From NCBI GenBank assembly GCA_052035095.1, contig JBPOHW010000005.1, positions 30,269-94,268 on the forward strand: a stretch of 64,000 nt of DNA, written 5' to 3'. Below the pieces are notes generated by a model. It searched no databases, was not told the origin of the DNA, and saw only the letters and a list, made by a program, of their open reading frames with translations. The translations under genes and the position numbers were made by a program. This DNA comes from Candidatus Moraniibacteriota bacterium. GTDB taxonomy: Bacteria; Patescibacteriota; Minisyncoccia; Moranbacterales; UBA1568. Positions 25,837 to 46,798 of this stretch are shown in pieces. Every line of letters begins with the position of its first letter. Positions within the stretch are counted from its first letter, which is position 1.

Positions 25837-25927
25837 AGAATATGTTACTTGCCCACCCCGTAAAGACTCCGAACCTCAAAAGAACTCTCGAAAAATAGTT
25901 CCCTAAAACCGAATTATCTTGAAGACT

Positions 25928-26035: not shown

Positions 26036-26072
26036 GGTAGCAGAGAGATTAGGCACATTGGTACAGAACCCT

Positions 26073-27272: not shown

Positions 27273-27302
27273 ACGCGCGAAGAAAAAAATAAACTCGAAA
27301 AG

Positions 27303-28469: not shown

Positions 28470-28537
28470 AGAAAGAGATGTACGGCTTTACACGTTGCCC
28501 GTGATCAAAAATCTTGTATCGTATCCATTTCGCTAAA

Positions 28538-28690: not shown

Positions 28691-28696
28691 TGCCGA

Positions 28697-33577: not shown

Positions 33578-34687
33578 CTATCGGAGGGGGGTCCCTCGTT
33601 GGTCCTCGACCAGCACTTCCTTAAGCCGCTCCATATCTTCGAGGACAACGCCCGTACCGCGTACCACCGCAGTCAAAGGATCCTCCATCATACGGACGGG
33701 AATGCCGGTTTGATTGGCGAGAAATCGATCAAACCCGCGAATCATACTTCCGCCGCCCGCCAGAATAATGCCCCGCTGAAAAATATCAGAAAGAAGTTCG
33801 GGCGGCGTTTCCTCTATAATCGTCTTGATGTTATTGACAATAATGCGGATCGAATGCGAAAGCGCCTCGCGAATATGTTCGTCGGTCGCGATGATCTCTT
33901 TGGGCAATCCGCTCACCAAATCGCGTCCGCGTATGGGATAGGTCATCGGCTCTCGAAGCGTATAGGCGCTCCCGATGGAAATTTTCACTTCTTCAGCGGT
34001 CTTTTCCCCGATAAGAAGATTGAATGAATCTCGCGCGTACCGGACGATGTCCTCGTTCATTTCGTCACCCGCGATACGAAGACTCCGCGATACAACGACG
34101 CCGCCCAAAGAAATAACGGCAATCTCCGTCGTCCCGCCACCGATATCGACGACCATGTTGCCGGACGCCTCGATAACCGGGAGTCGCGCGCCAATCGCCG
34201 CCGCCATCGGCTCGTCGATGAGGAACGCTTCGCGCGCTCCGGCATTCATCGTCGCTTCAATGACCGCGCGCCGTTCCACTTCGGTCACTCCCGAGGGAAC
34301 TCCCACCAAAACGCGCGGTCGCCGCAAAAACGCAAGATTGGTATCATGCACTTTATTGATAAAAAACCGGAGCATTTGTTGGGTCACGTCGAAGTCGCTC
34401 ACGACACCATCAACCAAAGGTCGTGTCGCCACAATATGCCCGGGCGTCTTCCCTACCATACGTTTGGCATCGCGTCCGATCGCGAGAATTTGCCCGGTCC
34501 GTTGATTCACCGCCACAACCGACGGCTCATTGATGACAATCCCCTTCCCGCGCACATAGACCAGCGTATTCGCCGTTCCCAAATCAATACCGATATCCTG
34601 CGAAAATCGCCCGAATACCATATCGGAAAATTGTTTCCGATACCGCCTGTATTGATGCGCAAATGAATTCGGTGAATGTGATTCCAT
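33578..34687 (-). CDS. mreB: Rod shape-determining protein MreB (actin homologue)
   Basis: IGIDLGTANTLVYVRGKGIVINEPSVVAV and downstream actin-fold motifs. The true start is probably the internal Met near 34621 (MVFGRFSQDIGIDLG). Confidence 0.9.
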   Translation of the reverse strand: MESHSPNSFAHQYRRYRKQFSDMVFGRFSQDIGIDLGTANTLVYVRGKGIVINEPSVVAVNQRTGQILAIGRDAKRMVGKTPGHIVATRPLVDGVVSDFDVTQQMLRFFINKVHDTNLAFLRRPRVLVGVPSGVTEVERRAVIEATMNAGAREAFLIDEPMAAAIGARLPVIEASGNMVVDIGGGTTEIAVISLGGVVVSRSLRIAGDEMNEDIVRYARDSFNLLIGEKTAEEVKISIGSAYTLREPMTYPIRGRDLVSGLPKEIIATDEHIREALSHSIRIIVNNIKTIIEETPPELLSDIFQRGIILAGGGSMIRGFDRFLANQTGIPVRMMEDPLTAVVRGTGVVLEDMERLKEVLVEDQRGTPLR

Positions 34688-34821: not shown

Positions 34822-36147
34822 TCACGGCGTGAGACGTTTGACGTCTCTCGGAAAGAGGACAGCCTGTTTGATGGTGGGAAGTCCCAAGAGTTGCTGAATG
34901 GTGCGCTCCGATCCCCAGCCCCACCCGCCGTGCGGCGGGCAACCATACCGAAAGGTGTCGAGATAATTCGAGAAATCCTCCGGATTCATCCCGCGCTTCT
35001 TGATCGACTCCACCATTTTTTTGTATTCATGAATACGCTGTCCGCCAGTCGCGAGTTCCAGCCCGCGAAAGAGGAGGTCGAAGCTTTCCGTAAAGTGCGG
35101 ATCGGCGCCCGGCAAAGTATAAAACGGCCGAATGGCGGTCGGATAATGCGTCAAGAAGACAAAATCCGATCCAAATTCGCGCTTCACATACTCGCAAATC
35201 ATCCGCTCGCCCTCGGGATCGATGTCGATTTCCCCGCCTTCCATTTTCTTCCCGAATTCTTTTTCAAGAATTTGAAGCGCTTCCGTCAGCTTCATGCGCG
35301 GGATAGCGACTCTTTTGGGAGCCTCGGCGCCCCACAATTCAAGCTCTTCTTTTCCTCGTTCGCCTATTTTTTCAAACACGTCAAAAATGATGCTTTCGAG
35401 CTCGTTCATCACGTCACCGACGCCTTCAATAAACGCCATCTCGGCATCAAGACTCACGTATTCGTTCACGTGGCGCGTCGTAAAGTGCGGCTCGGCGCGA
35501 AACACCGGTCCAATCTCGAAAACTCGCTCAAACACACTTGCCCCCGCCTCCTTATAAAATTGCGGACTCTGCGCGAGAAACGCATCGCGATCAAAATATT
35601 TGATCTTGAAAAAGTTGGCGCCGCCTTCGGTCGCGGCATTCACCACCTTTGGCGTCTTCACCTCGAGAAAACCGCGCGACCGAAGCGCGTCGGCATACGC
35701 GGATACCAGTATGCCATAAAGCCGAAAAATCGCCTGAACTTTTCGATTGCGGAGCGAAAAAATGCGATTGTTGAGAAGTGTATCAAGATGAAGTTCCTCA
35801 AGACCGCCCTCAGCTATTTCAAATGGGAGCGGACTTTCGGGAGCGGAAAGAATGATGAGTTCTTCAACTTCCACTTCGATACTCCCCAGGGTATCGGCGC
35901 GCTCGGCGCCACCCGGACGAGATTTCACCACACCGATCGCCTCGATGATACACTCATTCCGGCACTCGCGCGCCGCCTCATACGCCGCGCTATGATCGGG
36001 TATTACCACCAGTTGAACCGTACCGCTTCGATCGCGAACATCGAGAAATAAAATTTTCCCGTGGTCGCGACGCATATTCACCCATCCTTTCAGGCGAACC
36101 CGTTCCCCTTTCGCACGCAACGCTTCGACAATCAGTGTTCGTTCCAT
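34822..36147 (-). CDS. aspS: Aspartyl-tRNA synthetase, archaeal/eukaryal type (AspRS2-like; possibly non-discriminating)
   Basis: 441 aa with an N-terminal OB fold, FLEVKTPKVVNAATEGGANFFKIKYFDRDAFLAQSPQFYKE (the ATEGGA motif is typical of archaeal-type AspRS, versus SDCEGAGE in AsnRS), FRAE motif 2 and GGWGWGSER motif 3. Confidence 0.7.
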   Translation of the reverse strand: MERTLIVEALRAKGERVRLKGWVNMRRDHGKILFLDVRDRSGTVQLVVIPDHSAAYEAARECRNECIIEAIGVVKSRPGGAERADTLGSIEVEVEELIILSAPESPLPFEIAEGGLEELHLDTLLNNRIFSLRNRKVQAIFRLYGILVSAYADALRSRGFLEVKTPKVVNAATEGGANFFKIKYFDRDAFLAQSPQFYKEAGASVFERVFEIGPVFRAEPHFTTRHVNEYVSLDAEMAFIEGVGDVMNELESIIFDVFEKIGERGKEELELWGAEAPKRVAIPRMKLTEALQILEKEFGKKMEGGEIDIDPEGERMICEYVKREFGSDFVFLTHYPTAIRPFYTLPGADPHFTESFDLLFRGLELATGGQRIHEYKKMVESIKKRGMNPEDFSNYLDTFRYGCPPHGGWGWGSERTIQQLLGLPTIKQAVLFPRDVKRLTP

Positions 36148-36156: not shown

Positions 36157-36600
36157 TTACTGATTATTCCCTCCGGGATTTTCATCCGCTTGCAAATGCT
36201 CAATTTCATCACTCTGCCGCGATCCGGGTTGTTTCAGAAAACGAGAAACTTCTTCGACAAGTTGCGACGGCGAAAACTCAGACTTCGAAATAAAGCCGTT
36301 CGCGCCAAGACGCAGCGCCTTTTCCCGATCCTCTCGCTCATTCAAATTGCTAAACATGACGATTTTCAAATCGGGAGCATACCCGCTTTTGGGATTTCGA
36401 ATCTGCTCCAACACTTCCATACCGCCCATCTCGGGAAGGACGATGTCAAGAAGAACGATATCAAACGGCTCAACCCGCAAAATATCAAGTACCGCCTTTC
36501 CGGAAACCGCGATACGAACATCGAAACCGGCGGCAACGAATTTCCGTTCATACATCTCCGATATCATCGGGTCATCTTCAACCAAGAGTACCTTTGACAT
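36157..36600 (-). CDS. Single-domain response regulator (CheY-like receiver)
   Basis: MSKVLLVEDDPMISEMYERKF...FDIVLLDIVLPEMGGMEVLEQIR...KIVMFSNL is a receiver domain with the phospho-acceptor Asp context. The start is placed at MSKVLL (ATG 36598-36600); the ORF-track extension reads through the upstream repeat. Confidence 0.8.
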   Translation of the reverse strand: MSKVLLVEDDPMISEMYERKFVAAGFDVRIAVSGKAVLDILRVEPFDIVLLDIVLPEMGGMEVLEQIRNPKSGYAPDLKIVMFSNLNEREDREKALRLGANGFISKSEFSPSQLVEEVSRFLKQPGSRQSDEIEHLQADENPGGNNQ

Positions 36601-36620
36601 AGATGTTTTCTTAAATAATC

Positions 36621-36749
36621 TAGGACTTACGCGTTTGAGTGCAGTTCGAGGAAAATGCGAGGAACAGAGTAAACTGTATGCGCCATACAGCGTCCCCGCC
36701 GAGGCGGGGGAACATTTGACGAAGAAATTCGCCAAACGCGTAAGTCCTA
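36621..36749. repeat. Copy A of a ~130-150-bp element with 17-bp perfect terminal inverted repeats (TAGGACTTACGCGTTTG...CAAACGCGTAAGTCCTA), flanked by TA
   Basis: TAGGACTTACGCGTTTGAGTGCAGTTCGAGGAAAATGCGAGGAAC...GTCCCCGCCGAGGCGGGGGAACATTTGACGAAGAAATTCGCCAAACGCGTAAGTCCTA. It is near-identical to 60626-60773 and related to 11649-11768, and sits in the 5' leader of the response-regulator gene. Confidence 0.75.
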
Positions 36750-36752
36750 TAA

Positions 36753-37541
36753 TCAACGGAATTTCCACTTCCACATATATCGTACCCACGACCGTATATG
36801 CTCGCGCGCGAGGCGACTCGTAAAAGGCGCCACAAACCAACGTGATCGAGCGCTCCCTCTCGCGTGATCGTGTATGACAACCGCTTCCGGCAAGTATACC
36901 ACTCGAAGACCACTCCGCCACGCCCGACGGCACAGATCGGTATCTTCAAAATACATAAAGAAGCGCTCATCAAACCCGCCCACCCGCCGATAAAAATCCG
37001 CTCGTATCATAAGGCACGACCCGATCATCCAGTCGACATCGCGAATCGTCTCGTGATCGAAGTCGGTCATAAGATACCGCCCGAGATACGCCGGCACAAG
37101 ACGCCCGAGCGATGTCCGACGTACAATCGGCGTCCACACTTTCGGAAACCGAAGGCAGGAATATTGAAGCGTCCCGTCGGGATTCAAGAGTTTCGGCCCC
37201 ATAATGCCGATATCCTCACGCTCCTTCATACCCAAAAAAAGAAGTCGGACAGCATCGGGACGAACCAAGGTGTCGGGATTCAGAATAAGGAAAAACTTCC
37301 CCGTCGCCCGCTCGGCGCCCCGATTGTTCCCGCCCCCCATTCCGAGATTCTTTCCGCTTGAAAGGAACACTGCCTCCGGAAACTCCCTCTCGAAAGAAGT
37401 ATCAAAATCAGCCGTCTCGCTATTGTCAACCACGATCGTTTCATGCGATACTCCCGAGAAATCGGCTTTCCGAAGAGAACAAAGACACCGCCGAGTTTTC
37501 TCTCGGCTTCGATAGTTAACCAGAATGATACTCACGTCCAT
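36753..37541 (-). CDS. Glycosyltransferase family 2
   Basis: MDVSIILVNYRSREKTRRCL...VVDNSE...DTD...DED are GT-A (DXD) motifs. The ORF-track N-terminal 69 aa are antisense read-through of tRNA-Arg and are discarded; the start is the ATG at 37539-37541. Confidence 0.8.
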   Translation of the reverse strand: MDVSIILVNYRSREKTRRCLCSLRKADFSGVSHETIVVDNSETADFDTSFEREFPEAVFLSSGKNLGMGGGNNRGAERATGKFFLILNPDTLVRPDAVRLLFLGMKEREDIGIMGPKLLNPDGTLQYSCLRFPKVWTPIVRRTSLGRLVPAYLGRYLMTDFDHETIRDVDWMIGSCLMIRADFYRRVGGFDERFFMYFEDTDLCRRAWRSGLRVVYLPEAVVIHDHARGSARSRWFVAPFTSRLAREHIRSWVRYMWKWKFR

Positions 37542-37633
37542 ACACCGGAAATACCGAAAAATACCAGTTTCCCCATTTCCCCAGTGTACAATACTCGCAA
37601 AAAAAAGTATACTGCCTGACGAAGAAGGCACAC

Positions 37634-37706
37634 GTCTCTGTAGCTCAGTGGATAGAGCGTCTGGTTCCGGTCCAGAAGGCCGCAGGTCCGATTCCTGCCA
37701 GGGACA
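37634..37706 (+). tRNA. tRNA-Arg (anticodon CCG)
   Basis: Manually folded: acceptor GTCTCTG/CAGGGAC (one G-U pair), D-arm GCTC-AGTGGATA-GAGC, anticodon stem TCTGG/CCAGA with loop UUCCGGU, variable AGGCC, T-arm GCAGG-TCCGATT-CCTGC, discriminator A. No CCA encoded. Confidence 0.85.
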
Positions 37707-37710
37707 CACA

Positions 37711-37737
37711 CAAAAAGCGAGTTCGACTCGCTTTTTA
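37711..37737 (+). terminator. Rho-independent terminator immediately after tRNA-Arg
   Basis: AAAAAGCGAG-TTCGA-CTCGCTTTTTAT. Confidence 0.65.
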
Positions 37738-37760
37738 TATTCGCACAAACAAAACTTCGA

Positions 37761-39407
37761 TCATCCTTTCTTCACGGGGAAATCGACGGAAAAGGTGGAG
37801 CCTTTGTTGATGCCTTCGGAGAAAACGGAAATGGTTCCGCCCTGAGCTTCCATCATGCTCTTTCCCACATAGAGCCCGAGCCCGGTACCATTGGCATAGA
37901 GCTTCCCGCTCTCCTCGCCGCGGGTAAACTTCACAAAGAGCCGCGGAATCGCTTCGGGCGCTATGCCGACGCCCGTATCCGAAACCGAGATACGAACCAT
38001 GTTTGACACACGCTCCACTCGAACGCGGACACTCCCCTTCGGCGTATATTTGATCGCGTTATCTATCAAGTTCGACACCACTTCGAACGATTTCTTGCGA
38101 TCGATCCACACCGGCGGCAACGCCTCCCCTTCGGGACACTCAAAGGAAAGCTCAAGCCCCTTCTTCTTGGCGGCAATTGCAAACGTATCGCGAAGTTCAT
38201 TCAAGAATTCACATAAATTCACTTCCGTATATTCATAGACGAGTCGCCCCGCCTCCATACGAGAAATATTGAGAAGATCTTCAACCAAGTGAATAATACG
38301 CTCATTGGACGTATAAATTTTTTTGAGAATATCGGCGATACCGGCGGGCACCGCGCCATATGACCCCTCAAGAAGAAGCGAGACGAATCCCTTGATGGCG
38401 GTAAGCGGCGTCCGCAACTGATGCGACGCAATCGAGATAAATTCCGTTTTCGATTGGTCGAGCCGCTTCAACTCCACGTTCGCCGCCGCGAGCTTGTCCG
38501 TCACCACCTGCAACTCCTCCTTCCGCCGAATTTCATTCTTCACCGACCGGATGAGCAATATCCCGAATCCGATGGATAGAAGAAAGGTAACCGAAGTCAA
38601 AATATAATTGGTCGTTGTCTTGATGAAAAAAAGCTGAGCGCCGATAAGAACCGAAAGCCCAATCACCAACGCCTGCGCAGCAAGAAGCTTAATATTGAAT
38701 ATCTGGTATCGGACAATGAGATACGCCAAAAGCCCCATAAAAACCGGCATGCCGAAGAGTCCGTATTGGAGATATTCCCAATGCTCGGTAACACTTCCCA
38801 AAATATTCATCCCGGAAAAAGAGAGAAGAAAGAAAATTGAACCAACGGAAAGAAGCACCACCTTCTTTCTCTCTTCTCCGGAAGAATGAGCTATTTTATA
38901 AAGAAGAAATCCGAGAAGCCAGAGAAAAAAGAATACTTCGAGAAAATAGAAGTAGTATATGATCGGTCCCTGCGTCGCCTCGCAAACGGCCACATCAAAA
39001 CCCTTCAAATTAATACCCGTTGGAATCAACGCTAAAAATGGAAGAAAGAGGAAAGCGACAAACATTTTCCATCGAAGCAACACATCGCGCTTTTCCAAGA
39101 AGAGATACACGAAGTACAGCGTAAACACCGAAACGAAATTTTCAAGAATGTTAACAAACGACCACACAAACATAATGAAGCGACTGTCATTATTTGTCCA
39201 AAGTACAAGGTCTGAAAGCGCCCAAAAAGTAAAAAAAATAGATACGAAAAGAAGAGACTGAGCGGAAATATCACGACCCTTCATCCAAACAAAAAATCCG
39301 AGAAACAATGAAACAAGAATTGCCGGGAAATGTGAATAATACAAAAGTGGATGTGCTTCTTCTGAAAATATAAAAAACAAAGGATCTGAAATGTCTGTAC
39401 AGAACAT
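37761..39407 (-). CDS. Sensor histidine kinase with large N-terminal polytopic membrane domain
   Basis: About 8 TM helices, then HisKA (SHQLRTPLTAIKGF, phospho-His) and HATPase_c (GTGLGLYVGKSMMEAQGG) motifs. Confidence 0.85.
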   Translation of the reverse strand: MFCTDISDPLFFIFSEEAHPLLYYSHFPAILVSLFLGFFVWMKGRDISAQSLLFVSIFFTFWALSDLVLWTNNDSRFIMFVWSFVNILENFVSVFTLYFVYLFLEKRDVLLRWKMFVAFLFLPFLALIPTGINLKGFDVAVCEATQGPIIYYFYFLEVFFFLWLLGFLLYKIAHSSGEERKKVVLLSVGSIFFLLSFSGMNILGSVTEHWEYLQYGLFGMPVFMGLLAYLIVRYQIFNIKLLAAQALVIGLSVLIGAQLFFIKTTTNYILTSVTFLLSIGFGILLIRSVKNEIRRKEELQVVTDKLAAANVELKRLDQSKTEFISIASHQLRTPLTAIKGFVSLLLEGSYGAVPAGIADILKKIYTSNERIIHLVEDLLNISRMEAGRLVYEYTEVNLCEFLNELRDTFAIAAKKKGLELSFECPEGEALPPVWIDRKKSFEVVSNLIDNAIKYTPKGSVRVRVERVSNMVRISVSDTGVGIAPEAIPRLFVKFTRGEESGKLYANGTGLGLYVGKSMMEAQGGTISVFSEGINKGSTFSVDFPVKKG

Positions 39408-39493
39408 AAAAGAAATTTTTATTCCCTCCTCGGGGTCATTTTAACATAAAACAAGTATCCCTGCTCTAAAAGGCCAACTTCAAAGGAAAATAT

Positions 39494-40429
39494 CTACAAT
39501 AAGTAAACTCCAAAAGCAACAACTGCTATAGAACATATTTTAACACATAAACCGCGAAATTGATCTCGATATATTTTTTGTACAAACAGTGTCTGAAAAC
39601 GAAAAATCCACAAAAATACTATCAATAGAGCGCTAAACAACATCACAAAAGCCGGAATCAGGGTTTCCAAGACCGCAACAAAAGACGGTGAAGAGGAAAG
39701 GGAGAGCGCTCGTTGCGAACACAAAAATCCGAGAAGCGCCAGCCCTTCGCTTATCAAAAACACAAACCAATATCGTCGCGCCAGCTGAAACACTTTTGCA
39801 TTTCGTACTTTCACCGCCCACACAAGCGGCGCCACCAAAAATGCACCGAGTGAGAAAAGGAGATATCCGCTCCAAAATCCACCTTCTCCGACCAACTCAT
39901 ACGCGTGGGATTGAATTACCATACTTGCGGCAAGAGAGATATTCGCAAACAACATAGTCCCGGCGATAGACCAAAATCCTTCCGCGCGAATCGATGAGTC
40001 CATTGAAAGAAAAAATCCGCCGAGAAAAGCGACAAAAATTCCAACATACTGAATCCATTCAAGCCGTTCCCCAAGCGTGACCCATGAAAAAACCGGAACG
40101 AGGGGAAGTGAAAGCGTCCACAGTACCTGCGCCAGCGAGACATCGTTCTTTTGAAAGAGGGCTTTAAAATAAAAGTAGAAAGCCCCCATATAGAGGAAGC
40201 CCCCAAGAAGAAAAAGAACAAAAGGAAACATCGGAAGAAGCTGAAATTCCAAGATACCGAAAGGAACGGCAATCCATGGAACGATCTGAAAAAAACTCGA
40301 CAACAAAAGACCGTCAAGCGGTCCATCATAGATATCCTCAACAAAATACACGTCAATCAAATTGACAATCGCCCACAAGGCCGGCGCGCACAGCGCCAAG
40401 AGAAACCAATTATCCCAGAGAAAGTGCAT
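39494..40429 (-). CDS. Polytopic membrane protein, function unknown (first gene of AT-rich island)
   Basis: 311 aa with about 9 predicted TM helices and no diagnostic motif. Lower GC than the backbone. Confidence 0.4.
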   Translation of the reverse strand: MHFLWDNWFLLALCAPALWAIVNLIDVYFVEDIYDGPLDGLLLSSFFQIVPWIAVPFGILEFQLLPMFPFVLFLLGGFLYMGAFYFYFKALFQKNDVSLAQVLWTLSLPLVPVFSWVTLGERLEWIQYVGIFVAFLGGFFLSMDSSIRAEGFWSIAGTMLFANISLAASMVIQSHAYELVGEGGFWSGYLLFSLGAFLVAPLVWAVKVRNAKVFQLARRYWFVFLISEGLALLGFLCSQRALSLSSSPSFVAVLETLIPAFVMLFSALLIVFLWIFRFQTLFVQKIYRDQFRGLCVKICSIAVVAFGVYLL

Positions 40430-40486
40430 ATCGAAGGTAATCAGTAAAAAACAAAACTAAAACTATTTATAAAAATCAATTGTTTT

Positions 40487-40942
40487 TTACTTTTCCTGTA
40501 TGTTCAAGATTCTCTCTTGCACCCTATCGAGCTCCTCATCAGATACCTTTGGCCCTTCAACTGTTGTAATATAGCCAAGATATTCTGGATGAAATTCAAA
40601 GTGCTTGCTCCAGATATTCGTCTCATCCGCAAGATTTCCATGAAGCGGATACAGCTTTGCATGAACATAGGCAACGCCGGTACCCTCAAATACCATAGCA
40701 ACACGAGACACGCCAAGTGCTTTTTCAAGAATTTTTGCCACCGTTCTCGCCGCACCAAGCAAACCTTGATAGTCATTCTCCTTTAAGTCAAATACGTAGT
40801 TCCCAACATCACTCTTTGGAATCACGACAGTTACTCCAATGGTATTGGGAAATGGCGTCAAAAAAGCAAGGTAGTCATTATCTTCCCATACCTTCCACGA
40901 TTTCAATTCTCCAGAGAGAATTCTTTCAAAGAGAGTGCTCAT
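40487..40942 (-). CDS. HIT-superfamily-like protein with degenerate histidine triad
   Basis: The N-terminal FERILSGEL...WEDNDYLAFLTPFPNTIGVTVVIPK matches the HIT fold (IFCKII..E.P..V.ED....AF.DI.P.APGH.LVIPK). The HxHxHxx triad position reads VHAKLYP, with only one His retained. Confidence 0.45.
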   Translation of the reverse strand: MSTLFERILSGELKSWKVWEDNDYLAFLTPFPNTIGVTVVIPKSDVGNYVFDLKENDYQGLLGAARTVAKILEKALGVSRVAMVFEGTGVAYVHAKLYPLHGNLADETNIWSKHFEFHPEYLGYITTVEGPKVSDEELDRVQERILNIQEK

Positions 40943-40983
40943 AAACTCGATTAGCTCAATTCAGAAAGCGCTTTTTCCGCATG

Positions 40984-42393
40984 CTATTTCTTTCGCTTCT
41001 CAATCCAAACCTGTCGTAGCGTTTCATCGGATAACTCGCTCGGAGCGCCCATAAGCAAATCTTTTGCCTCGCCTGTTTTTGGAAATGCGATTACTTCACG
41101 AATACTTTCTTCACCAAGAATAGTAGAGATAAGCCGATCCATTCCAAGCCCCGTTCCAGCGTGCGGTGGAACCCCAAGAGAAAATGCACGAAGTATATGA
41201 CCAAATTTATTCTGTATTTCCTCTTCCCTAAGTCCGATCGACTCAAATATGGTTTTTTGTAGCCCTGCATCATGTATACGAACACTGCCAGAACTAATTT
41301 CATACCCATTCAGAACAAGATCAAACGCCGTGGAACGAACCGAGAGCGGATCGCTTTTTATTCGAGATATATCTTCGTCGAGCGGCATGGTAAATGGGTG
41401 ATGCGCGGATGAAATTCCAGTCTTCGAAGTGCTATCTTCTTCAAAAAGCGGAAACTCCGTCACCCAACAAAATGCCAACGTGTCACTATCTTTTTTCTCT
41501 CGCATATCCGGTTTGTCACACCCATAATTCTTCATAGAATCCGCATAGGTCATTTTTGGAAACGGCGTAGAAAGAATTTTCTTGTTCGGAAATATCTTCG
41601 AAACAAGCGCTATCATAGAATCCTCAACCATTTTCATCACATCACCCTCATCAACAAAAGACATCTCAATGTCAAATTGAGTAAATTCCGGCTGACGATC
41701 CTGTCGCTGATCCTCATCTCGAAAGCACCGTGCCACCTGAAAATATTTCCCCATACCGGAGACCATGAGAAGTTGTTTGAACTGTTGTGGAGATTGCGGA
41801 AGAACATAAAACTGTCCATGATGAATTCTCGAAGGAACGATAAATTCTCGAGCACCCTCCGGAGTTCCCTTAGTAAGGATAGGTGTCTCCACCTCACAAA
41901 ATCCATTCTCGCTGTAGTAATTCCGAAGAAAGAGCATTGTTTCATGGCGAGACCGGATATTTCTTTGCATTCGATCCGATCGGAGATCAAGATATCGGTG
42001 TTTCATGCGAAGAGACTCGTCTATCGCATTCGTGTCATCGTCAACGGAAAATGGAAGCGCTGTCGCAGGCGAAAAAATATGAAGAGTTTCAGCGACAAGT
42101 TCTCTGTCACCGAGAGGCTGATTTGGATTTATGAGATTTTTTTGTCGCTCAACGACGGTTCCGGAAACTTGTATGACCGACTCGAGGGAAATCTTCTTTA
42201 TTTGTTCAAATGTTTCTCCGGTACACACAACCTGAATTTTCCCCGAAGGGTCACGAAGATCACAAAAAGCAACCTTTCCGTGCAGTCGGAGGTTGTGTAC
42301 CCACCCAGAAAGAATAGTCTTTTTTCCGACACGTTCCCGACTCTCAGCTATAGAGCAATCATTCTTTCTATAGGTTTTCATAATGGTTTCCAT
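40984..42393 (-). CDS. aspS: Aspartyl-tRNA synthetase, bacterial type lacking the GAD insertion domain
   Basis: 469 aa with an N-terminal OB fold, RYLDLR, QSPQQFKQLLMVSG, FRDEDQRQDRQPEFTQFDIEMSF (motif 2), bacterial-specific LAFCWVTEFPLFEE and AHHPFTMP, GGSVRIHD and GLGMDRL (motif 3). There is no roughly 100-aa GAD domain. Its start overlaps the stop of the upstream fusion gene. Confidence 0.8.
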   Translation of the reverse strand: METIMKTYRKNDCSIAESRERVGKKTILSGWVHNLRLHGKVAFCDLRDPSGKIQVVCTGETFEQIKKISLESVIQVSGTVVERQKNLINPNQPLGDRELVAETLHIFSPATALPFSVDDDTNAIDESLRMKHRYLDLRSDRMQRNIRSRHETMLFLRNYYSENGFCEVETPILTKGTPEGAREFIVPSRIHHGQFYVLPQSPQQFKQLLMVSGMGKYFQVARCFRDEDQRQDRQPEFTQFDIEMSFVDEGDVMKMVEDSMIALVSKIFPNKKILSTPFPKMTYADSMKNYGCDKPDMREKKDSDTLAFCWVTEFPLFEEDSTSKTGISSAHHPFTMPLDEDISRIKSDPLSVRSTAFDLVLNGYEISSGSVRIHDAGLQKTIFESIGLREEEIQNKFGHILRAFSLGVPPHAGTGLGMDRLISTILGEESIREVIAFPKTGEAKDLLMGAPSELSDETLRQVWIEKRKK

Positions 42394-44381
42394 TAAGGAA
42401 TAATATGTGTCTGGCTTCTTGGAAATAGAACTACGTCTTCAACGGTATTATACCCAAGTAATTTCGCAACAACCCGATCAATTCCAAGACAAAAACCGCC
42501 GTGCGAAACCGGCGTCTTGAAGTAATCGAGATAAAACTGAAAGTTTTCAGGATTTACTCCTGACATCTTCATTCTTTCAACAATACGAGAAGCATCGGTT
42601 TCTCGTACGGCGCCAGAACAAATTTCCCAGCCCCTATAAATAATATCAAAGGACTCTGTATAGTGCTCGTCCACCTCTTTCGTATAAAACTTTTTCGTGA
42701 GATTCGGATAATGAACAATCGCAAAAATATCCCAGCTACGATTTTCTTTTAAGAAATTTGCCAATTCGTATTCCCTGCTATAACCAAGATCATCCCCGTA
42801 CGAATATTCAGTATCAACATGAGCTGTCACTATCTCAAATACCTCGTCATAACTTATGGATTGTATTTCCTTCGCAATAACATTTTCTTGCGCAATAAGT
42901 TGCCCTTCCAATAATCTCTCCGAGGAAAAATTCAGTATTTCTCCAGCAACAGCAAGTAGAGCATTGATTCCTTCATTTTTCTTCAGTTGCATTTCAACAT
43001 CAAGCCCCCATGCTTCTGATAAATGCCTTGCAGTAGGACTCGTCTCCTCACGCCAAAATGGTCCATACTCAAAAACGCGCCTCATCCCAGACAGAACAAG
43101 CATTTGCTTATACATCTGATTAGACTGTCGCAAAAAAAGTTTTCTTTCATACCATTGAACAGAGAACAATTCCTCACTTGCATTGTTTCTCGGTGGGTCA
43201 GTTGATATTGGTACTACATACGGAGTATGCACTTCCGTATAAACCTCCTTTTCTTGCAGATAATCTCGGAAGCCCTTTTCAAAAACGCTTCTCAAAAAAG
43301 CAACGTGCGCTAAATTTTTATTGAGCCTCTTCTTGCTCAATTCTAAGTTTAAGCCGACCTCCACACTTATCAACTCTTTTTCTATAGCACGATACACCTC
43401 ACCGACACGTTCTCTTATAATCTCATTTGCCTTTTCAATTTGAGCAACTCGATCCCTATATCGTTGAGCAGTCAGTTTTTTTATGGTCGCTATTGAATAG
43501 ATAGACGCGCTTTTGTTCAAAGATGCAAGCAAAATCGTATTCTGAGGGTTTCCAACATCGATAATTTTTGGTATATGGAACAACTTATTTATTTTCTCTG
43601 ACTCTTCATAAGAAAGAACATCCGAAAGACAGAAGAAAACGGCATCGTACTCGCCTATTTTATCGAGATACTCACTAAATTCGACTCTGGCTCTTGCCAC
43701 TCCGGTTTCAACCAATTTATTTGCTCGAGACTCTGTCCTATTTGTAACATCAATAGATTCAAAACCTTTTTCATGTAAAACATGTGCAATGAGGCTCCCC
43801 ATAGCTCCACATCCGACAATCAGAATGCACTGAGACTGATCGCCATTTACATTTTGAAGCAACTCAACCGCTTGTCGACCGACTGAAACGTTTCCAATCC
43901 CTATCATTGTTTGTTCTTTTACGGAAAGCGCTACTCTTTTGGCTGAACGAAAAAGAACCTCCATTACCGGACCAGAGGCTTTAAATTTTTTACTGCTCGT
44001 CAAAGCAAATCGAACCTGTCCAAGTACTTGACCATCCCCAATGGTCACGCTCTTTAATCCGGAAGACACTTGCAAGAGATGCTCGACACATTTGTATTCA
44101 CGGTAAAGGGCGATGTCAGATCCGCCGAAGCCATCTGGAGAGATACTAACTAATCTCCACGTTTTTACAATTTTTTCCAAATCAAAAACCCCCCAGACAA
44201 AAATCTCCGTGCAATTACATTTTTGCAAAATGACTACCTCCTCTACACAGGGGAGTTTCTTAAATTCACTATATCCCCGCGAAATATCTTTAATATTACA
44301 GGCATTGACGATATCCTGAGTGTTATTATTTAGACTTATTGAAATACAATAAAGGTCTCTTTTTTGCAAAGTTTTCCCCAT
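42393..44381 (-). CDS. Fusion protein: glutamyl-tRNA reductase (HemA/GluTR)-like N-terminal half + class IIb aminoacyl-tRNA-synthetase-like catalytic core (AspRS/AsnRS/AsnA-type, no anticodon-binding domain)
   Basis: N-half: VVILQKCNCTEIFVW (GluTR catalytic-Cys motif TCNRTELY, with Arg replaced by Cys), VEHLLQVSSGLKSVTIGDGQVLGQVRFAL (versus GluTR [23 protein letters not shown]), ILIVGCGAMGSLIAHVL...NRTESRANKLV (NADPH Rossmann domain, versus LLVGAGET...ANRTRERAQ) and KIIDVGNPQN (versus DIAVPRD). C-half: EVHTPYVV...RQSNQMYKQMLVLSG, YGPFWREETSPTARHLSEAWGLDVEM (motif 2), SFDIIYRGWEICSGAVRE and GGFCLGIDRVVAKLLG (motif 3). Confidence 0.7.
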   Translation of the reverse strand: MGKTLQKRDLYCISISLNNNTQDIVNACNIKDISRGYSEFKKLPCVEEVVILQKCNCTEIFVWGVFDLEKIVKTWRLVSISPDGFGGSDIALYREYKCVEHLLQVSSGLKSVTIGDGQVLGQVRFALTSSKKFKASGPVMEVLFRSAKRVALSVKEQTMIGIGNVSVGRQAVELLQNVNGDQSQCILIVGCGAMGSLIAHVLHEKGFESIDVTNRTESRANKLVETGVARARVEFSEYLDKIGEYDAVFFCLSDVLSYEESEKINKLFHIPKIIDVGNPQNTILLASLNKSASIYSIATIKKLTAQRYRDRVAQIEKANEIIRERVGEVYRAIEKELISVEVGLNLELSKKRLNKNLAHVAFLRSVFEKGFRDYLQEKEVYTEVHTPYVVPISTDPPRNNASEELFSVQWYERKLFLRQSNQMYKQMLVLSGMRRVFEYGPFWREETSPTARHLSEAWGLDVEMQLKKNEGINALLAVAGEILNFSSERLLEGQLIAQENVIAKEIQSISYDEVFEIVTAHVDTEYSYGDDLGYSREYELANFLKENRSWDIFAIVHYPNLTKKFYTKEVDEHYTESFDIIYRGWEICSGAVRETDASRIVERMKMSGVNPENFQFYLDYFKTPVSHGGFCLGIDRVVAKLLGYNTVEDVVLFPRSQTHIIP

Positions 44382-44551
44382 ACAACAAAAAAAATTCAGT
44401 AAGCAACCGACAAAAAGAAGTTATCAGGAAAGTAAACGAAAGACAAGTGCAGGCTTCTTCACTACGAAATTGCAAGACATCAGAACATCCATCCCCATCG
44501 TTTCAGCCGTTTGCTATCCTTTCTTTATAAATAGCTCCCTGATATAGGAAA

Positions 44552-45877
44552 TTAGGAAACCCATCCCCATTTTTGTAACAAAGGAAGCTCTTTTTCTGCA
44601 AATTGAACGCCGATATCTGTTCGGTAAAACATCTTCGGAACAATAATCTTTTCAACAATGCAATATACCTCTCCCCTTGCTTTTTCTATAGAATCTCCAA
44701 ATCCGGTAACGTAGAGTATAAACCCGTTGCTTCCGGAAATATAGTAATTCTTTCCCTCAGTTCCTCTATCCTTGGAAATTTCTTCAAAATGAACTCGACT
44801 TCGTTCCTCATGAGAAAGTGGGCAACTAAAGAAAACTCTCACACCTTTTGATGAATATATCGATGATATACCTTCATAGGGAAATGGTGGCGCCGCTACA
44901 GAGACAACTACGCCAAATCCGTGTTTATACTTCAAATCATACGATTTTCCATCCGCCACGGCACTCAAAAATTCCGTCCATGGGGAAAGATGGATTTCCG
45001 CTTGCAGCTGAGTGGAGGGACAACCAAGTCGCGAGGTAACCTCAAGCGGATACAGAGCCTTTTTATCAAGGATGCAATTTATGTCAATATCGCCTCTAAA
45101 ATCAATTTTCTGAAGATATGATTTCATCTTGGCAAGCGTCTGACAAAAAAGCTGGTTATTTTCATTATCGGTATACCACATCACCGTTCCCATTTCTCCG
45201 GTTTTCGGTCCGATACCATCGTTAAAAAGACTTTTGTGCTCAACATTGATTTCGATTGGTCCCACCCAATCCTTTCCATTAAAATAACGAGCAACCCCAA
45301 CCTCTATTCCCATCACCTTTTTCTGCAGGTCGATATCTTGAATTCCAACCTCATCATATTTTTTCAACACACTCAAAACATCCTCCCCATCATCAACTTT
45401 TCCAACATAATTAAGCGAACTTTGGTGACTATTCTGCTTTATCACCCACTGGCCCGGATGTTTTTTTAAAAATGCTATCGCCTTTTTCGGGCTCTCAAAA
45501 CGAAACGACGGGAGTATGGCAATCCCGCATTCCTCTAAAATTTTTTGTCCGTACTCGCGATTTTTTTCGAGACGATCTCCAAACGCGCTTCCGCCAAAAA
45601 CGCGGTAGCCTTCTTTTCGCAGGCGATCCTGTTCTCGACCAAACCCGACATCGTCAAAAACAATAAGCCCCTTCTTCCCCACCCATTCAAGCTCTTTTTT
45701 CCAGTCATTCGTCTTTTTGACCATACCATCGAGACATTCGCGCCGCTTCGGATCGCGAATATACATTTTCACGTCATTCCCCTCGCCCTTCAGGCGAACA
45801 CACAGATCCGCCCCAATTAATTCCCCCGAAACAAAGAGTATCCGCATAAAACAAAAAAGATAATTCCTCTCAATCAA
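44552..45877 (-). CDS. PurD-like ATP-grasp ligase (glycinamide-ribonucleotide-synthetase family fold)
   Basis: MRILFVSGELIG (PurD-type N-domain start), ATP-grasp core, GPKTGEMGTV (versus PurD GPNTGGMGA) and a C-terminal GFGDSIEKARGEVY (versus PurD GDTLEEAR..AY). The likely start is the internal MRILF Met. Confidence 0.6.
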   Translation of the reverse strand: MIERNYLFCFMRILFVSGELIGADLCVRLKGEGNDVKMYIRDPKRRECLDGMVKKTNDWKKELEWVGKKGLIVFDDVGFGREQDRLRKEGYRVFGGSAFGDRLEKNREYGQKILEECGIAILPSFRFESPKKAIAFLKKHPGQWVIKQNSHQSSLNYVGKVDDGEDVLSVLKKYDEVGIQDIDLQKKVMGIEVGVARYFNGKDWVGPIEINVEHKSLFNDGIGPKTGEMGTVMWYTDNENNQLFCQTLAKMKSYLQKIDFRGDIDINCILDKKALYPLEVTSRLGCPSTQLQAEIHLSPWTEFLSAVADGKSYDLKYKHGFGVVVSVAAPPFPYEGISSIYSSKGVRVFFSCPLSHEERSRVHFEEISKDRGTEGKNYYISGSNGFILYVTGFGDSIEKARGEVYCIVEKIIVPKMFYRTDIGVQFAEKELPLLQKWGWVS

Positions 45878-46099
45878 ACATCAAAATCAAACTCAAAATA
45901 TAGTTTCTAAAGTAAACTTGAATTTATACCATAAAATGATTTACGCGTCAATATTAAAAGTCAAAGAAAACGGACAAAAATGTCCGCTTGAAAAGAAACT
46001 CCATATTTTATGCTCGAAAAATACCCTTTCAATGGGGGAAAATGGGGTTTTCATATCGGAAAATACATCCGGAAAAACATCAACGATGGTCGGAGCTCT

Positions 46100-46798
46100 C
46101 TATTCGATTCCTTCATTCACTTCTTTTGTCGCCTCCATATCGCCCTTTTCGGGCTCGGTCACACTCCCCTCTCCTTCTTGAGGAAGCTCGCCCTCAAGAG
46201 GACTTGCGTCTTCCTCATTCGCCGTCTCATCTCCTTCACTCTCATTCATTTCTTCCGGCTCCACATCATTCGACGGGACAAACCCCGGACCAACGCAGGA
46301 CTCGCCCTCCGGCACGGTTTCATCGTCGCACATCGTTTCAGTGCAGTCCGCTTCGTCCGACCGGCACGACAGATCGGCGCAAGTTGGATCTTCGAGCGAA
46401 CCAAACGCGCACACCTCCGGAAAGGCGGATGCCTTCCGCTCGACGATTTTGTAATACGCCGTTTCAATAGGAGTGTCCCCTTCTCCGCAGACGCCGTCCT
46501 CGGTCTCGCAAATATCGCGCGCGAAACACGCCGACACAGCCGGATCGCAGACGGTCTCCAGCGTCACCGCGTAGTTTCGAGCCACAAATATCCGATAATA
46601 GGTCGCTCCGACCGAAAGAAAAATCGCCACGAAGAAAACCACGAAAAACCACCGAGACGAAAACGATCGTCGCCCACCGATTCCTTCTTCTGCCTTGATC
46701 ACTTTACCATCCATAAAACATCGCTCTGCAATGAAAAGCTTCGACTTTTTCAGTATACCAGAAAGTGCGTACAATAAAAAATACAACTTTTTTCGCAA
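46100..46798 (-). CDS. Membrane-anchored cysteine-rich, highly acidic protein (hypothetical)
   Basis: TM helix (WFFVVFFVAIFLSVGATYY), an extracytoplasmic segment with 12 Cys (CDPAVSACFARDICETEDGVCGEGD...CAFGSLEDPTCADLSCRSDEADCTETMCDD) and a D/E-rich tail. Confidence 0.45.
   Translation of the reverse strand: MRKKLYFLLYALSGILKKSKLFIAERCFMDGKVIKAEEGIGGRRSFSSRWFFVVFFVAIFLSVGATYYRIFVARNYAVTLETVCDPAVSACFARDICETEDGVCGEGDTPIETAYYKIVERKASAFPEVCAFGSLEDPTCADLSCRSDEADCTETMCDDETVPEGESCVGPGFVPSNDVEPEEMNESEGDETANEEDASPLEGELPQEGEGSVTEPEKGDMEATKEVNEGIE

Follow-up and report, generated by a model that had tools for sequence, protein, structure and literature searches.

The closest described relatives of the gene reported here are the PurD enzymes, or GAR synthetases (EC 6.3.4.13; PDB 2xcl, 2yw2, 1gso and 2qk4), with which it shares an N-A-B-C four-domain architecture and an overall length. 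In the PurD of A. aeolicus glycine is bound by D212, R287 and E292 (PMC8880213), and the GARS signature PS00184 has been quoted as R-[LF]-G-D-P-E-x-[EQIM] (PMC3261824). Two haloarchaeal proteins annotated as PurD, rrnAC0307 and Hlac_1553, were judged by the authors of the latter study not to be GAR synthetases (PMC3261824). The biotin-carboxylase/PurK/PurT branch has a pre-ATP-grasp N-domain, an ATP-grasp domain and a C-domain in common with the present ligase, but its substrates (bicarbonate, formate) and motifs are its own and it lacks a sequence-level match, since PDB and Pfam searches return PurD only. Two enzymes of the ATP-grasp type, glutathionylspermidine synthetase and the D-aspartate ligase Asl(fm), join a carboxylate to a polyamine and to the amine of a wall precursor, respectively; they serve here as functional analogies only and share no detectable relationship with the ligase beyond the superfamily fold.

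CPR organisms are generally without de novo purine synthesis, and thousands of CPR genomes label the ligase gene 'phosphoribosylamine--glycine ligase'. This label can mislead metabolic reconstructions, in which a purine step is scored in organisms thought to depend on salvage, and the failed PurD tests described below correct it. The gene was analyzed in a window of 64,000 nucleotides from a Candidatus Moraniibacteriota bacterium, together with its relatives in other genomes and in phages.

Gene structure and predicted fold

An intact open reading frame occupies positions 44552..45877 of the minus strand and encodes 441 amino acids if counted from a TTG codon. The true start is almost certainly the ATG at 45847, because all homologues begin with MR/KILF and a database protein (P0001) that is 100% identical to the window ligase has 431 residues; the predicted coding sequence is therefore 44552..45847. 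On the same strand, a terminator-like hairpin following the upstream gene (45989..45968) stands next to promoter-like hexamers within 45923..45989. One pair, TTGACT-17-AATCAT (45964..45936), was found by scanning and the other, TTGACG-17-TATAAA (45951..45923), was read by eye; both are consensus matches only and weak evidence. A pseudogene is ruled out by the intact frame, the invariant catalytic residues and hundreds of full-length orthologues.

Sequence matches in the PDB were to PurDs only, the best being 2xcl with an E-value of 1.8e-15 for the single sequence and 2.7e-29 for the family profile. The AlphaFold model of the ligase (pLDDT 92.3, pTM 0.91) has the four-domain PurD fold: the top 15 Foldseek matches in the PDB were all PurD, with TM-scores of 0.72-0.76 over about 440 columns, followed by biotin carboxylases at about 0.6. 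Together with the motif comparison below, these searches bear out the proposal, made earlier in a sequence-only reading, that the gene encodes a diverged PurD-family ATP-grasp ligase, and the relationship is far beyond chance. Pfam recognized GARS_A and GARS_C only, with no match to GARS_N (PF02844) in the window ligase, and profile alignments with PurD structures begin only at about residue 73. The MRILFVSG segment that had been taken for the start of a PurD N-domain is present, but it is only a generic beta-strand start and the PurD hallmark GGREHA is absent.

Catalytic and substrate-binding residues

The ligase was compared motif by motif with the PurDs of E. coli, S. aureus and L. monocytogenes, and residue roles were transferred from PurD via the alignment. 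All of the motifs quoted in the sequence-only reading were found, namely MRILFVSG at residues 1-8, GPKTGEMG at residues 213-220, and GFGDSIEKARGEVY. In the ligase the catalytic machinery is kept and the substrate-recognition motifs of PurD are lost. None of K137, E182, K205, E269 and R273 varies among 28 CPR sequences, and E91, K135, E205, K207, E269, R273 and R401 (P0171 numbering) are invariant in 37 CPR and phage members that are 25-43% identical to P0171. The features expected of an ATP-grasp carboxylate-amine ligase, an ATP-binding Lys and Glu and an acyl-phosphate-stabilizing Arg, are conserved. The ligase thus has in common with PurD its ATP-binding lysines and glutamate, the Mg-binding Glu, the carboxylate/acyl-phosphate Arg and the C-terminal YRxDIG and, presumably, the acyl-phosphate chemistry. 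From these residues the ligase is probably catalytically active.

The metal site departs from that of PurD. Both the Mg ligand E269 and the acyl-phosphate/carboxylate-binding R273 are kept in EVTSRLGCPSTQ (45008..45043, minus strand, as are all features of the ligase below), but the canonical Asn of the PurD E-x-N is an invariant Thr271, giving E-x-T. D255-x-N257 in the preceding strand might provide substitute Mg ligands. QN(G/S)HxSALNY takes the place of the glycine-rich B-loop GLAAGKG. Because the canonical Mg-binding Asn is a Thr and the glycine-rich B-loop is missing, catalysis could differ from the textbook ATP-grasp scheme.

Each of the PurD motifs GGREHA, APGN, GPE, GLAAGKG, DHKR, NTGGMG, FGDPE and HAGT has been replaced. 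The N-domain (residues ~1-100, 45548..45847) has a PurD-like fold in which GGREHA reads ELIGAD, PGN reads DPK and GPE reads DDVGFG. In E203-H204-K205 (45233..45241), the counterpart of PurD D-H-K, the ATP-binding K205 is accompanied by E203 in place of the glycine-binding Asp. The active-site loop GPKTGEMG (45188..45211; GPNTGGMG in PurD) carries E218, which is invariant in the family. At the C-terminus, the alignment places YRTDIG, common to PurD, ahead of a family-specific tail ending in LLQKWGWVS (44555..44626), an extra conserved element of the form LLxxWGW[IL] that PurD lacks. Acidic residues have been gained at the positions of PurD GGMG (E218), HAGT (E355-E356) and GPE (D65-D66). Two of the three glycine binders are altered (D212 to E203 and E292 to S278, the first of each pair in A. 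aeolicus numbering) and only the third is kept (R287 as R273), so that the comparison called for by the sequence-only reading found the PurD substrate residues not all conserved. The PurD GDPE reads GCPS, and the PS00184 signature accordingly fails: the window sequence is R-L-G-C-P-S-T-Q and the family consensus R-F-G-[CY]-P-x.

These comparisons bear on whether the protein could be a true GAR synthetase that has simply diverged. No family is closer to it than PurD in sequence or structure, the catalytic core and C-terminal YRxDIG are common to the two, and many family members are named 'phosphoribosylamine--glycine ligase' in databases. Even so, the NCBIfam PurD model TIGR00877 gave the ligase 95.4 bits, over residues 84-425 only, against an equivalog cutoff of 288; identity to the three real PurDs is 19-20%, against 53-62% inside the family across the whole phylum. 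The absence of GARS_N and GGREHA, the failure of PS00184 and the two altered glycine binders point the same way. The haloarchaeal 'extra PurD-like' proteins were rejected on the same criteria by Brown et al. (PMC3261824). By description, which is the only basis on which they were compared, rrnAC0307 and Hlac_1553 resemble the ligase in being without GARS_N, in a divergent N-terminal P-loop and in a missing Asp of R[LF]GDPE; they differ from it in co-occurring with a real PurD in purine-synthesizing archaea (PMC3261824).

Genomic context adds to this. The check for purine genes covered the 64-kb window and about 85 family neighbourhoods, and no de novo gene (purF, N/T, L, M, K/E, C, B or H) was found among the approximately 35 window genes annotated or placed by synteny or in those neighbourhoods; the earlier remark that no purine genes lie nearby holds. 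A divergent GAR synthetase is therefore highly improbable. The ligase is very likely not a PurD, and to judge from its sequence its substrates are very probably other than glycine and PRA.

A family shared by CPR bacteria and phages

The ligase belongs to a large, unnamed PurD-derived family found in Patescibacteria (CPR) and uncultivated phages. The family comprises 2026 clusters at E<=1e-3, and 711 representatives (50% clustering) at E<=1e-30. Identities of 53-62% extend across Gribaldo-, Pacei-, Moranii-, Magasanik-, Kaiser- and Nomurabacteria and the cultured Minisyncoccus archaeiphilus, whose strain PMX.108 carries the gene in its complete genome (NZ_AP038758.1). Members are recognized by E-x-T-x-R-[FL]-G-x-P, a GPxTGEMG loop, E-H-K, an N-terminus without GGREHA and a C-terminal WG[WY][IL] tail; this signature is complete in the window protein and is common to 28 CPR sequences and most of 26 more distant members. 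The family profile scored the CPR clade at 487-664 bits and real PurDs at approximately 60-105. A description of the family was not found in the literature searched.

Conserved neighbourhood in CPR genomes

Gene context was examined in 82 loci, of which 80 are genome loci of the best-scoring relatives (at least 50% identity) and are not independent of one another. The most consistent partner of the ligase is an EamA/DMT permease, present in 54 of the 82 loci; in 37 of them the two genes are immediate neighbours, and the median gaps are 9-23 bp. A 228-aa membrane protein takes its place in 16 further loci. In the window the permease gene (39494..40429, minus strand) lies 4 kb away because of the island described below. 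A gene for a pyruvoyl decarboxylase of the AdoMet_dc family was found in 25 loci, usually one or two genes upstream (median gap 19.5 bp), and the order of ligase, EamA and AdoMet_dc genes varies while their adjacency stays. The decarboxylase gene is directly upstream or one gene away in both closest relatives of the window ligase; tblastn found no homologue in the window, and only about 30% of loci have it adjacent. A representative neighbouring homologue passes the NCBIfam SAM_DCase_Bsu cutoff (84.6 versus 75.65). This family is known to hide ornithine and arginine decarboxylases (ODC and ADC). AdoMet_dc homologues of CPR include a biochemically proven ornithine decarboxylase (PMC10407285).

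Other recurrent neighbours are a membrane-anchored Cys-rich protein with an acidic tail and without a Pfam family (46100..46798, minus strand), encoded upstream of the ligase in 52 of 82 loci, and a multi-TM HisKA sensor kinase (37761..39407, minus strand) that follows it in 59 of 82. A GT2 gene (36753..37748) and a response regulator gene (36157..36933) share the segment 36157..39407 and the strand of the kinase gene. Methyltransferase genes also follow the ligase: a GAMT homologue (E 1.7e-42 to rat GAMT) in eight loci, PrmA-like genes in five and SET genes in five, and there is one ligase-SET fusion, whose SET match is weak (E 1.3e-4). The label 'orphan' given in the sequence-only reading is misleading, since the ligase has a well-conserved neighbourhood of its own, albeit one unconnected with purines. 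Shared ancestry may account for the synteny of much of that neighbourhood (kinase, regulator, AspRS, MreB/C).

Ligase and permease have also moved together. On a 6-Mb Rhodospirillales chromosome the two genes form a low-GC island (0.41 and 0.38, against about 0.55), and they were co-transferred into this proteobacterium. The gene immediately upstream of the island belongs to the PvlArgDC family; its GC content is host-like (0.58), so the adjacency may be accidental. A Rhodocyclales contig (L073) was set aside as a second case of transfer; its neighbouring genes mostly lack Pfam matches, which makes its binning doubtful.

A recombined island and the reductase-aaRS fusion

Downstream of the ligase gene, the minus strand encodes a fusion of GluTR_N, Shikimate_DH and a class II aaRS core (42393..44381), followed by a bacterial-type AspRS of 469 aa and a HIT protein (40487..42393). 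Sliding identity and blastn against the relative L003 place a recombination breakpoint inside the ligase gene, approximately at 45550..45580: upstream of it, including the segment for the N-domain, nucleotide identity is 97-100%, and downstream it is 50-70%. The AspRS gene is 97.8% identical to that of L003 at the nucleotide level, so the shared backbone resumes there. As these identities indicate, the fusion sits in a variable island swapped by recombination, one breakpoint of which is inside the ligase gene.

The position of the ligase upstream of the fusion had been offered as a clue to its substrate, with the two proteins working together and, for example, an amino aldehyde or amine derived from an aminoacyl-tRNA or aminoacyl-adenylate being ligated. 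The ligase and fusion genes share a strand, with 170 bp and no terminator-like site on that strand between them, the 3' three-quarters of the ligase gene and the fusion gene lie on one recombined segment, and both occur on one Kaiserbacteria contig. There, however, some 11 kb and over 12 genes separate them, with the fusion in a row of AspRS, SDR, fusion, amidohydrolase and M17 genes. In 84 further loci with the ligase, among them those of relatives at 86%, 67% and 64% identity, the fusion was never adjacent, and its family is very small, with about 12 clusters compared with over 2000 of the ligase. Fusion homologues elsewhere (L149 and L150 among them) are not adjacent to the ligase; they adjoin AspRS or, as in L150, stand alone. 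Comparative context thus largely refutes the clue: the fusion is not a conserved partner, and a joint function is very unlikely.

Proposed function

The reading we tentatively favour, at somewhat less than even chances, is that the protein is an active carboxylate-amine ligase of the ATP-grasp type, working in a permease module and acylating an amine that arises by decarboxylation. ATP would be bound by K137, E182, K205 and R97, given the residues retained, and Mg2+ by E269, perhaps with D255 and N257 compensating for the change of Asn to Thr271. A carboxylate held by R273 would be phosphorylated to an acyl-phosphate, which an amine bound on the remodelled N and C domains would attack to form an amide. 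In CPR, gene context suggests that the ligase operates in a module with the DMT/EamA permease or the alternative 228-aa membrane protein, often together with the AdoMet_dc-family decarboxylase. Most likely it would N-acylate an amine (putrescine, agmatine or decarboxylated SAM, for instance), with either the product or a substrate crossing the membrane through the permease, and in some lineages a GAMT-like, PrmA/PRMT-like or SET methyltransferase would methylate the product. That ligase and permease form a functional unit is fairly likely. Supply of the amine by the pyruvoyl decarboxylase is a possibility that we hold with less confidence. Conservation across the phylum in minimal genomes, pairing with the permease, co-transfer and presence in phage virion modules signal an important reaction. 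Once its substrates are known, CPR biology and phage infection may turn out to involve a new metabolite, an amine or polyamine, or a new modification, and it would become clear how an ancient biosynthetic enzyme was adapted to another task.

Envelope genes dominate the window (a Mur ligase, two PBPs, MraW/MraZ, YkuD, Wzy and LCP), and the ligase might instead attach an amine or amino acid to the carboxylate of a nucleotide- or lipid-linked wall precursor, of peptidoglycan or another polymer, in the manner of Asl(fm) or of polyamine-substituted peptidoglycan, with the adjacent membrane protein handling a lipid-linked intermediate. In the relative at 86% identity the ligase gene overlaps a Ddl gene by 10 bp and has an M15 peptidase gene upstream, the L003 island contains an S66 LD-carboxypeptidase and a Ddl, and MreB/MreC, GT4 glycosyltransferases and a Wzz-like gene recur near the ligase. 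The natural amine of PurD is, moreover, a sugar-phosphate amine, from which a nucleotide-sugar-peptide acceptor would not be far removed. The Ddl, M15 and S66 neighbours are nevertheless sporadic and unconserved across the 82 loci, and the phage homologues are found among virion genes without wall-synthesis partners. EamA-type permeases are metabolite transporters and are not known to act as lipid II flippases. Acidic residues stand where PurD has phosphate-binding motifs, which would disfavour an anionic, nucleotide-linked acceptor. We consider an envelope role unlikely.

Phage members

The phage members are more distant and lie in head and ejection modules among virion genes, between terminase and portal or beside genes for DNA ejection and tail fibres. 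In one protein (P0247) a portal, a ligase and a Phage_Mu_F domain are fused, with the ligase between portal and MuF. Iyer et al. read portal/MuF-fused architectures as virion-packaged, injected effectors (PMC5512222). The phage members resemble these 'polyvalent protein' effectors in lying among late virion genes, with one portal-MuF fusion, and the passages of that paper on ATP-grasp and MuF proteins do not include a PurD-like ATP-grasp domain (PMC5512222). The window ligase differs in being chromosomal in a CPR bacterium, outside any phage. No decarboxylase or permease gene was found beside the phage members, which stand alone among virion genes.

The phage context fits a modifier of proteins or host targets as well as it fits a metabolite ligase. 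An enzyme of the former kind would act much as RimK or tubulin-tyrosine ligase does, linking an amine or amino acid to a carboxylate on a protein; phages would carry it in the virion and inject it, and a copy domesticated by CPR would act with protein methyltransferases. The location of the phage genes and the P0247 architecture, interpreted as above, are consistent with this, as are the PrmA-like and SET genes that follow the CPR gene and the one ligase-SET fusion, PrmA-like and SET enzymes being classically protein methyltransferases. The SET match in that fusion is the weak one noted earlier, however, and the gene most tightly linked to the ligase in CPR encodes a permease for small molecules. 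The ligase also co-occurs with a pyruvoyl decarboxylase and with a homologue of GAMT, a small-molecule guanidino methyltransferase, and a conserved adjacent candidate for a substrate protein is missing except for the Cys-rich protein, which looks extracytoplasmic. All characterized enzymes of the PurD/PurK/PurT/biotin-carboxylase branch, as far as we are aware, act on small molecules. Protein modification is thus rather improbable. Returning to acylation of a small amine, we offer as a speculative extension that this PurD offshoot makes a new amide-linked amine or polyamine conjugate, maybe guanidino-methylated, which CPR would exchange through the DMT permease, and that phages use the enzyme as a virion-packaged effector. 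If so, CPR would possess a new small-molecule pathway at the heart of their physiology or of host interaction, and the phages an injected enzyme of a new class.

Neither the window protein nor any of five distant members matched an entry in PHROGs, and the BFVD viral structure library held no close match, its best hits being generic ATP-grasp proteins at a TM-score of 0.48. In the GenBank phage collection tblastn matched 17 records, one of which contains a full-length, family-type match of 28% identity that is unannotated. Most of the others align only from residues 61-74 onward at 21-26% identity, as canonical PurDs do; many of the matches are in 'UNVERIFIED_ORG' records, and the two of these that were translated are canonical PurDs.

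Structure prediction and active site of the PurD-like protein

The PurD-like ATP-grasp open reading frame lies on the minus strand at 44552..45877 and encodes 441 amino acids when counted from a TTG codon. By comparison with the conserved start of its homologues and with P0001, an identical database protein of 431 amino acids, the true start is predicted to be the ATG at 45847 ('MRILFVSG'). The reading frame is real, and every motif quoted for it in the sequence-only reading is present. In a Pfam scan the protein matched GARS_C narrowly over the cutoff (36.6 bits) and GARS_A narrowly under it (26.3 bits), with no match to GARS_N; the NCBIfam purD equivalog scored 95 bits, where the cutoff is 288. 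Sequence matches in the PDB were PurD chains only, headed by B. subtilis 2xcl (E 1.8e-15 with the single sequence, 2.7e-29 with the family profile), and the alignment to PurD started no earlier than residue ~73. An AlphaFold model built from 28 homologues had a pLDDT of 92.3 and a pTM of 0.91. When this model was compared with the PDB using Foldseek, the 15 top matches were full-length PurDs (TM 0.72-0.76), followed by biotin carboxylases at ~0.6. On the basis of the exclusive PDB matches, the confident model and the Foldseek ranking, the protein is a PurD-fold ATP-grasp protein, which confirms the observation made from the sequence.

The sequence was aligned with the PurDs of E. coli, S. aureus and L. 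monocytogenes, 12 homologues from Patescibacteria (CPR) and 14 distant homologues, and residue roles were carried over by alignment from a study of A. aeolicus PurD (PMC8880213). The catalytic core of PurD is kept: the ATP residues K143, E192, K214 and K103 of A. aeolicus correspond to K137, E182, K205 and R97, the Mg residue E283 to E269, and R287, which contacts the carboxylate or acyl-phosphate, to R273. None of these core residues varies within the CPR clade, nor do their equivalents in the family as a whole. Nearly all PurD-specific motifs are exchanged: GGREHA for ELIGAD, PGN for DPK, GPE for the DDVGFG region, IKADGLAAGKG for IKQNSH-QSS, QDHKR for VEHKS, GPNTGGMG for GPKTGEMG, EFNCRFGDPETQ for EVTSRLGCPSTQ, and HAGT for FEEI. 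Comparison of the glycine-binding residues with characterized PurD, as the sequence-only reading had proposed, showed two of three to be altered (D212 to E203 and E292 to S278, A. aeolicus to window protein). The protein does not match Prosite's GARS signature, R[LF]GDPEx[EQIM], and shares 19-20% identity with real PurDs. At PurD glycine or phosphate-binding positions it has gained invariant acidic residues (E218, E355/E356 and D65/D66), a change that may indicate a cationic acceptor in place of a phosphosugar. Brown et al. rejected haloarchaeal 'extra PurD-like' proteins as GAR synthetases for their missing GARS_N, divergent P-loop and lost Asp (PMC3261824), and the window protein falls short on the same features. 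As judged from its sequence, the window protein is not a PurD. The suggestion in the sequence-only reading of altered substrates is supported by the loss of the specificity motifs and of two of the three glycine binders. No pur genes were found among the ~35 window genes annotated or placed by synteny.

Distribution of the ligase family

A word-indexed search returned 2026 clusters related to the window protein at E<=1e-3. The best 120 of these were full-length (430-454 amino acids), 53-92% identical, and derived from Gribaldobacteria, Paceibacteria, Moraniibacteria and other Patescibacteria; those that were named were labelled 'phosphoribosylglycinamide synthetase C domain-containing protein' or 'phosphoribosylamine--glycine ligase'. 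Species genomes in GTDB carried the family at 254 loci; Minisyncoccus archaeiphilus, which is cultured, was among them, as were a few bins from outside CPR. When 1.84 billion representatives were searched exhaustively with a profile, 5736 matched, including 711 at E<=1e-30. Scores were 487-664 bits in the CPR clade and then formed a continuum descending to about 220 bits, whereas real PurDs reached only about 60-105 bits under the same family profile. Distant members share the signature E-x-T-x-R-[FL]-G-[YCW]-P, lack GGREHA at the N-terminus and carry a C-terminal tail (...WG[WY][IL]) that PurD does not have. A simple NJ tree with PurD as the root placed the CPR sequences in one clade, nested among other family members. 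This is a big, conserved and misannotated family of PurD-derived ligases of CPR bacteria and phages, without a name or assigned function.

Conserved gene neighbourhood

Neighbourhoods were compared at 82 loci using crude ORF calls (greedy longest ORFs) and BLAST clustering; the genome loci counted were the 80 best-scoring. The recurring genes share one strand with the ligase and, with counts inflated by synteny by descent among related lineages, comprise, in their usual order, a Cys-rich membrane-anchored protein (52/82 loci), an AdoMet_dc-family pyruvoyl decarboxylase (25/82), an EamA/DMT permease (54/82) or alternatively a 228-amino acid membrane protein (16/82), the ligase, a GAMT homologue (8/82), PrmA/PRMT-like methyltransferase (5/82) or SET protein (5/82), a multi-TM HisKA kinase (59/82), and then a response regulator, AspRS, MreB and MreC. 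Gaps to EamA, AdoMet_dc and the kinase are short (medians 9-23 bp, with some overlaps). EamA, AdoMet_dc and the Cys-rich gene differ in their arrangement around the ligase from locus to locus yet stay adjacent, which argues for selection on clustering rather than a purely inherited order.

In Pfam and NCBIfam scans the AdoMet_dc neighbour scored 93 bits, exceeding the SAM_DCase_Bsu cutoff, the SET neighbour was confirmed, and the third methyltransferase had PrmA as its top Pfam match. The 239-amino acid methyltransferase is a clear guanidinoacetate N-methyltransferase homologue (E 1.7e-42 to rat GAMT), and the CPR homologues were undetected by any Pfam or NCBIfam model. They occur after or near the ligase (L014, L017, L027, L031, L036, L062, L064 and L078), between it and the sensor kinase, a slot filled elsewhere by PrmA/PRMT-like or SET genes. 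The Cys-rich family (cluster c3; 46100..46798, minus strand, in the window) usually lies 1-3 genes upstream of the ligase and has an N-terminal membrane anchor, CDP..C..C motifs and a long acidic tail, with no Pfam matches. In the closest relatives of the window gene (86% and 67% identity) AdoMet_dc is immediately upstream or one gene off; no AdoMet_dc homologue was detectable within the 64-kb window. Since the CPR AdoMet_dc homologues include an ornithine decarboxylase proven by biochemistry (PMC10407285), the amine could be putrescine, agmatine or dcSAM.

On a 6.04-Mb Rhodospirillales chromosome (OZ244972.1), ligase and EamA form a low-GC island (L005/L025, 7349..10307), with GC of 0.41 and 0.38 where the flanks have about 0.55. 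Immediately upstream is a divergent member of the pyruvoyl-dependent arginine-decarboxylase (PvlArgDC) family. Because the GC of this gene is host-like (0.58), co-transfer is clear only for ligase and EamA.

The family combines the fold and catalytic residues of PurD with loss of the determinants of PurD specificity. It is strongly conserved, and it shows conserved adjacency to, and co-transfer with, a DMT permease. The ligase would phosphorylate a carboxylate bound by R273 and then transfer the acyl group to an amine, which would often be supplied by the adjacent pyruvoyl decarboxylase. The permease would transport the product or a substrate, and in some lineages the product may be modified by a guanidino-, arginine- or lysine-type methyltransferase. 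Action on a wall precursor is suggested instead by the overlap with Ddl in L086, the locus of the 86%-identical relative, and by surroundings rich in envelope genes.

Phage members of the family

Distant family members were common on uncultivated phage contigs (L088, L089, L090, L092-L148; P0131-P0270). Three of the four distant members that could be placed on contigs were in phage genomes, within the packaging/head module. The gene orders were terminase - portal - 99 aa - ligase - ... - SU10-type major capsid protein; terminase - ligase - portal; and terminase fragment - ligase - ... - portal - capsid. A scan of IMG/VR identified 57 viral contigs on which the family gene adjoins large virion proteins, named by PHROGs as terminase large subunit, head-closure, DNA-ejection, and tail or tail-fibre proteins. 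The family was absent from the curated phage resources PHROGs and BFVD, and GenBank phages held one member, unannotated. In domain scans, P0247 was a fusion of portal, ligase and Phage_Mu_F, which suggests a virion-packaged enzyme; Iyer et al. read this architecture as marking head-packaged enzymes injected with DNA (PMC5512222). P0159 gave a weak match to a C-terminal SET domain.

The location among phage virion genes, together with the MuF fusion and with partners of the SET and PrmA types, suggests a ligase that modifies proteins or is an injected effector. The data do not discriminate decisively, and a small-molecule ligase is favoured over both this and the wall-precursor alternative because enzymes throughout the PurD/PurK/PurT/biotin-carboxylase branch, to our knowledge, have small molecules as substrates and the closest partner is a metabolite permease.

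P0138 contains Hint, intein-splicing and LAGLIDADG domains, and in several other representatives of 740-820 amino acids the family match is split at the catalytic Arg or the GPxTGEMG loop. From these domains the P0138 intein appears to sit at an active-site position, and the insertions of the other long members are assumed to be inteins likewise; of the two proteins scanned, P0138 and P0135, the latter had no reported intein domain. The long members (740-1120 amino acids) are P0138, P0133, P0135, P0148, P0170, P0181, P0192, P0205, P0227 and P0256, whose matches are broken either at the arginine of the catalytic ExTxR or at the GPxTGEMG loop.

Genomic context in the window

The gene next to the ligase (42393..44381, minus strand) encodes a 662-amino acid fusion of a glutamyl-tRNA-reductase (GluTR)-like N-terminus (GlutR_N and a Shikimate_DH NAD(P) domain) to an AspRS/AsnRS/AsnA-like class II catalytic core without an anticodon-binding domain. 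Its KCNCTE motif (C55) aligns with what we take to be the GluTR catalytic-Cys motif. The core is 31% identical to the window's archaeal-type AspRS versus 25% to the bacterial-type enzyme, and the fusion may be an aminoacyl-adenylate or aminoacyl-tRNA reductase. It adjoins AspRS both in the window and in L149, a Kaiserbacteria locus. The position of the ligase upstream of this fusion had been taken as a clue to its substrate, a suggestion that was not supported: the two are adjacent at none of the 84 other ligase loci, and homologous fusions elsewhere lie apart. The fusion family is rare (about 12 clusters). Ligase and fusion are both present on the Kaiserbacteria contig, about 11 kb apart, with the fusion in an AspRS-SDR-fusion-amidohydrolase-M17 row; in another genome the fusion stands alone. 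Its travelling partner seems to be AspRS, not the ligase, and functional coupling of ligase and fusion is very improbable.

The window backbone consists of the Cys-rich gene, ligase (44552..45847), EamA (39494..40429), kinase (37761..39407), GT2 (36753..37748), response regulator (36157..36933), archaeal-type AspRS (34822..36147, minus strand; 441 amino acids, 'aspartate--tRNA(Asn) ligase') and MreB (33578..34687); a block of fusion, bacterial-type AspRS and HIT protein separates ligase from EamA. A close relative, L003, shows 92-98% nucleotide identity on both flanks. Over the initial ~270 nt of the ligase gene similarity is 97-100%, over the remainder of the gene it is 50-70%, and it returns at the AspRS start. 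In between, L003 carries a wholly different island (8300..15265, against window 42393..45550) of six genes: HD, methyltransferase, an unknown gene, S66 peptidase, a stand-alone aaRS core and Ddl. The similarity drop and the differing genes place the fusion within a variable island, with its left recombination breakpoint inside the ligase gene at ~45550..45580.

GC is 0.40-0.44 at 38-46 kb (38000..46000) versus about 0.50 on both sides, a dip spanning kinase, EamA, HIT, AspRS, fusion and ligase. The family gene was lower in GC than its locus in all nine loci checked. A sequence scan, which is weak evidence, found a terminator-like hairpin and promoter-like hexamers ahead of the ligase and no terminator-like site between ligase and fusion, so that co-transcription of the two is possible in the window genome.

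Three class IIb synthetase genes, the archaeal-type AspRS among them, lie within one 30-kb part of the window, and the fusion is a fourth related gene. The bacterial-type AspRS (40984..42393, minus strand; 469 amino acids) matches NF001750 in two stretches and thus apparently lacks the usual insertion domain. A 532-amino acid class IIb synthetase with an OB anticodon-binding domain (13063..14661, minus strand; Pfam only) is probably LysRS. Nearly all genes at 1002..29674 are on the minus strand, and cell-envelope functions dominate: a Mur ligase, two class B PBPs, MraW, MraZ and a YkuD L,D-transpeptidase, with Wzy, GT4 glycosyltransferases, LCP and an S41 protease as further genes. The same stretch holds ThyA, dCTP deaminase and a lone plus-strand GGDEF gene (6745..7437).
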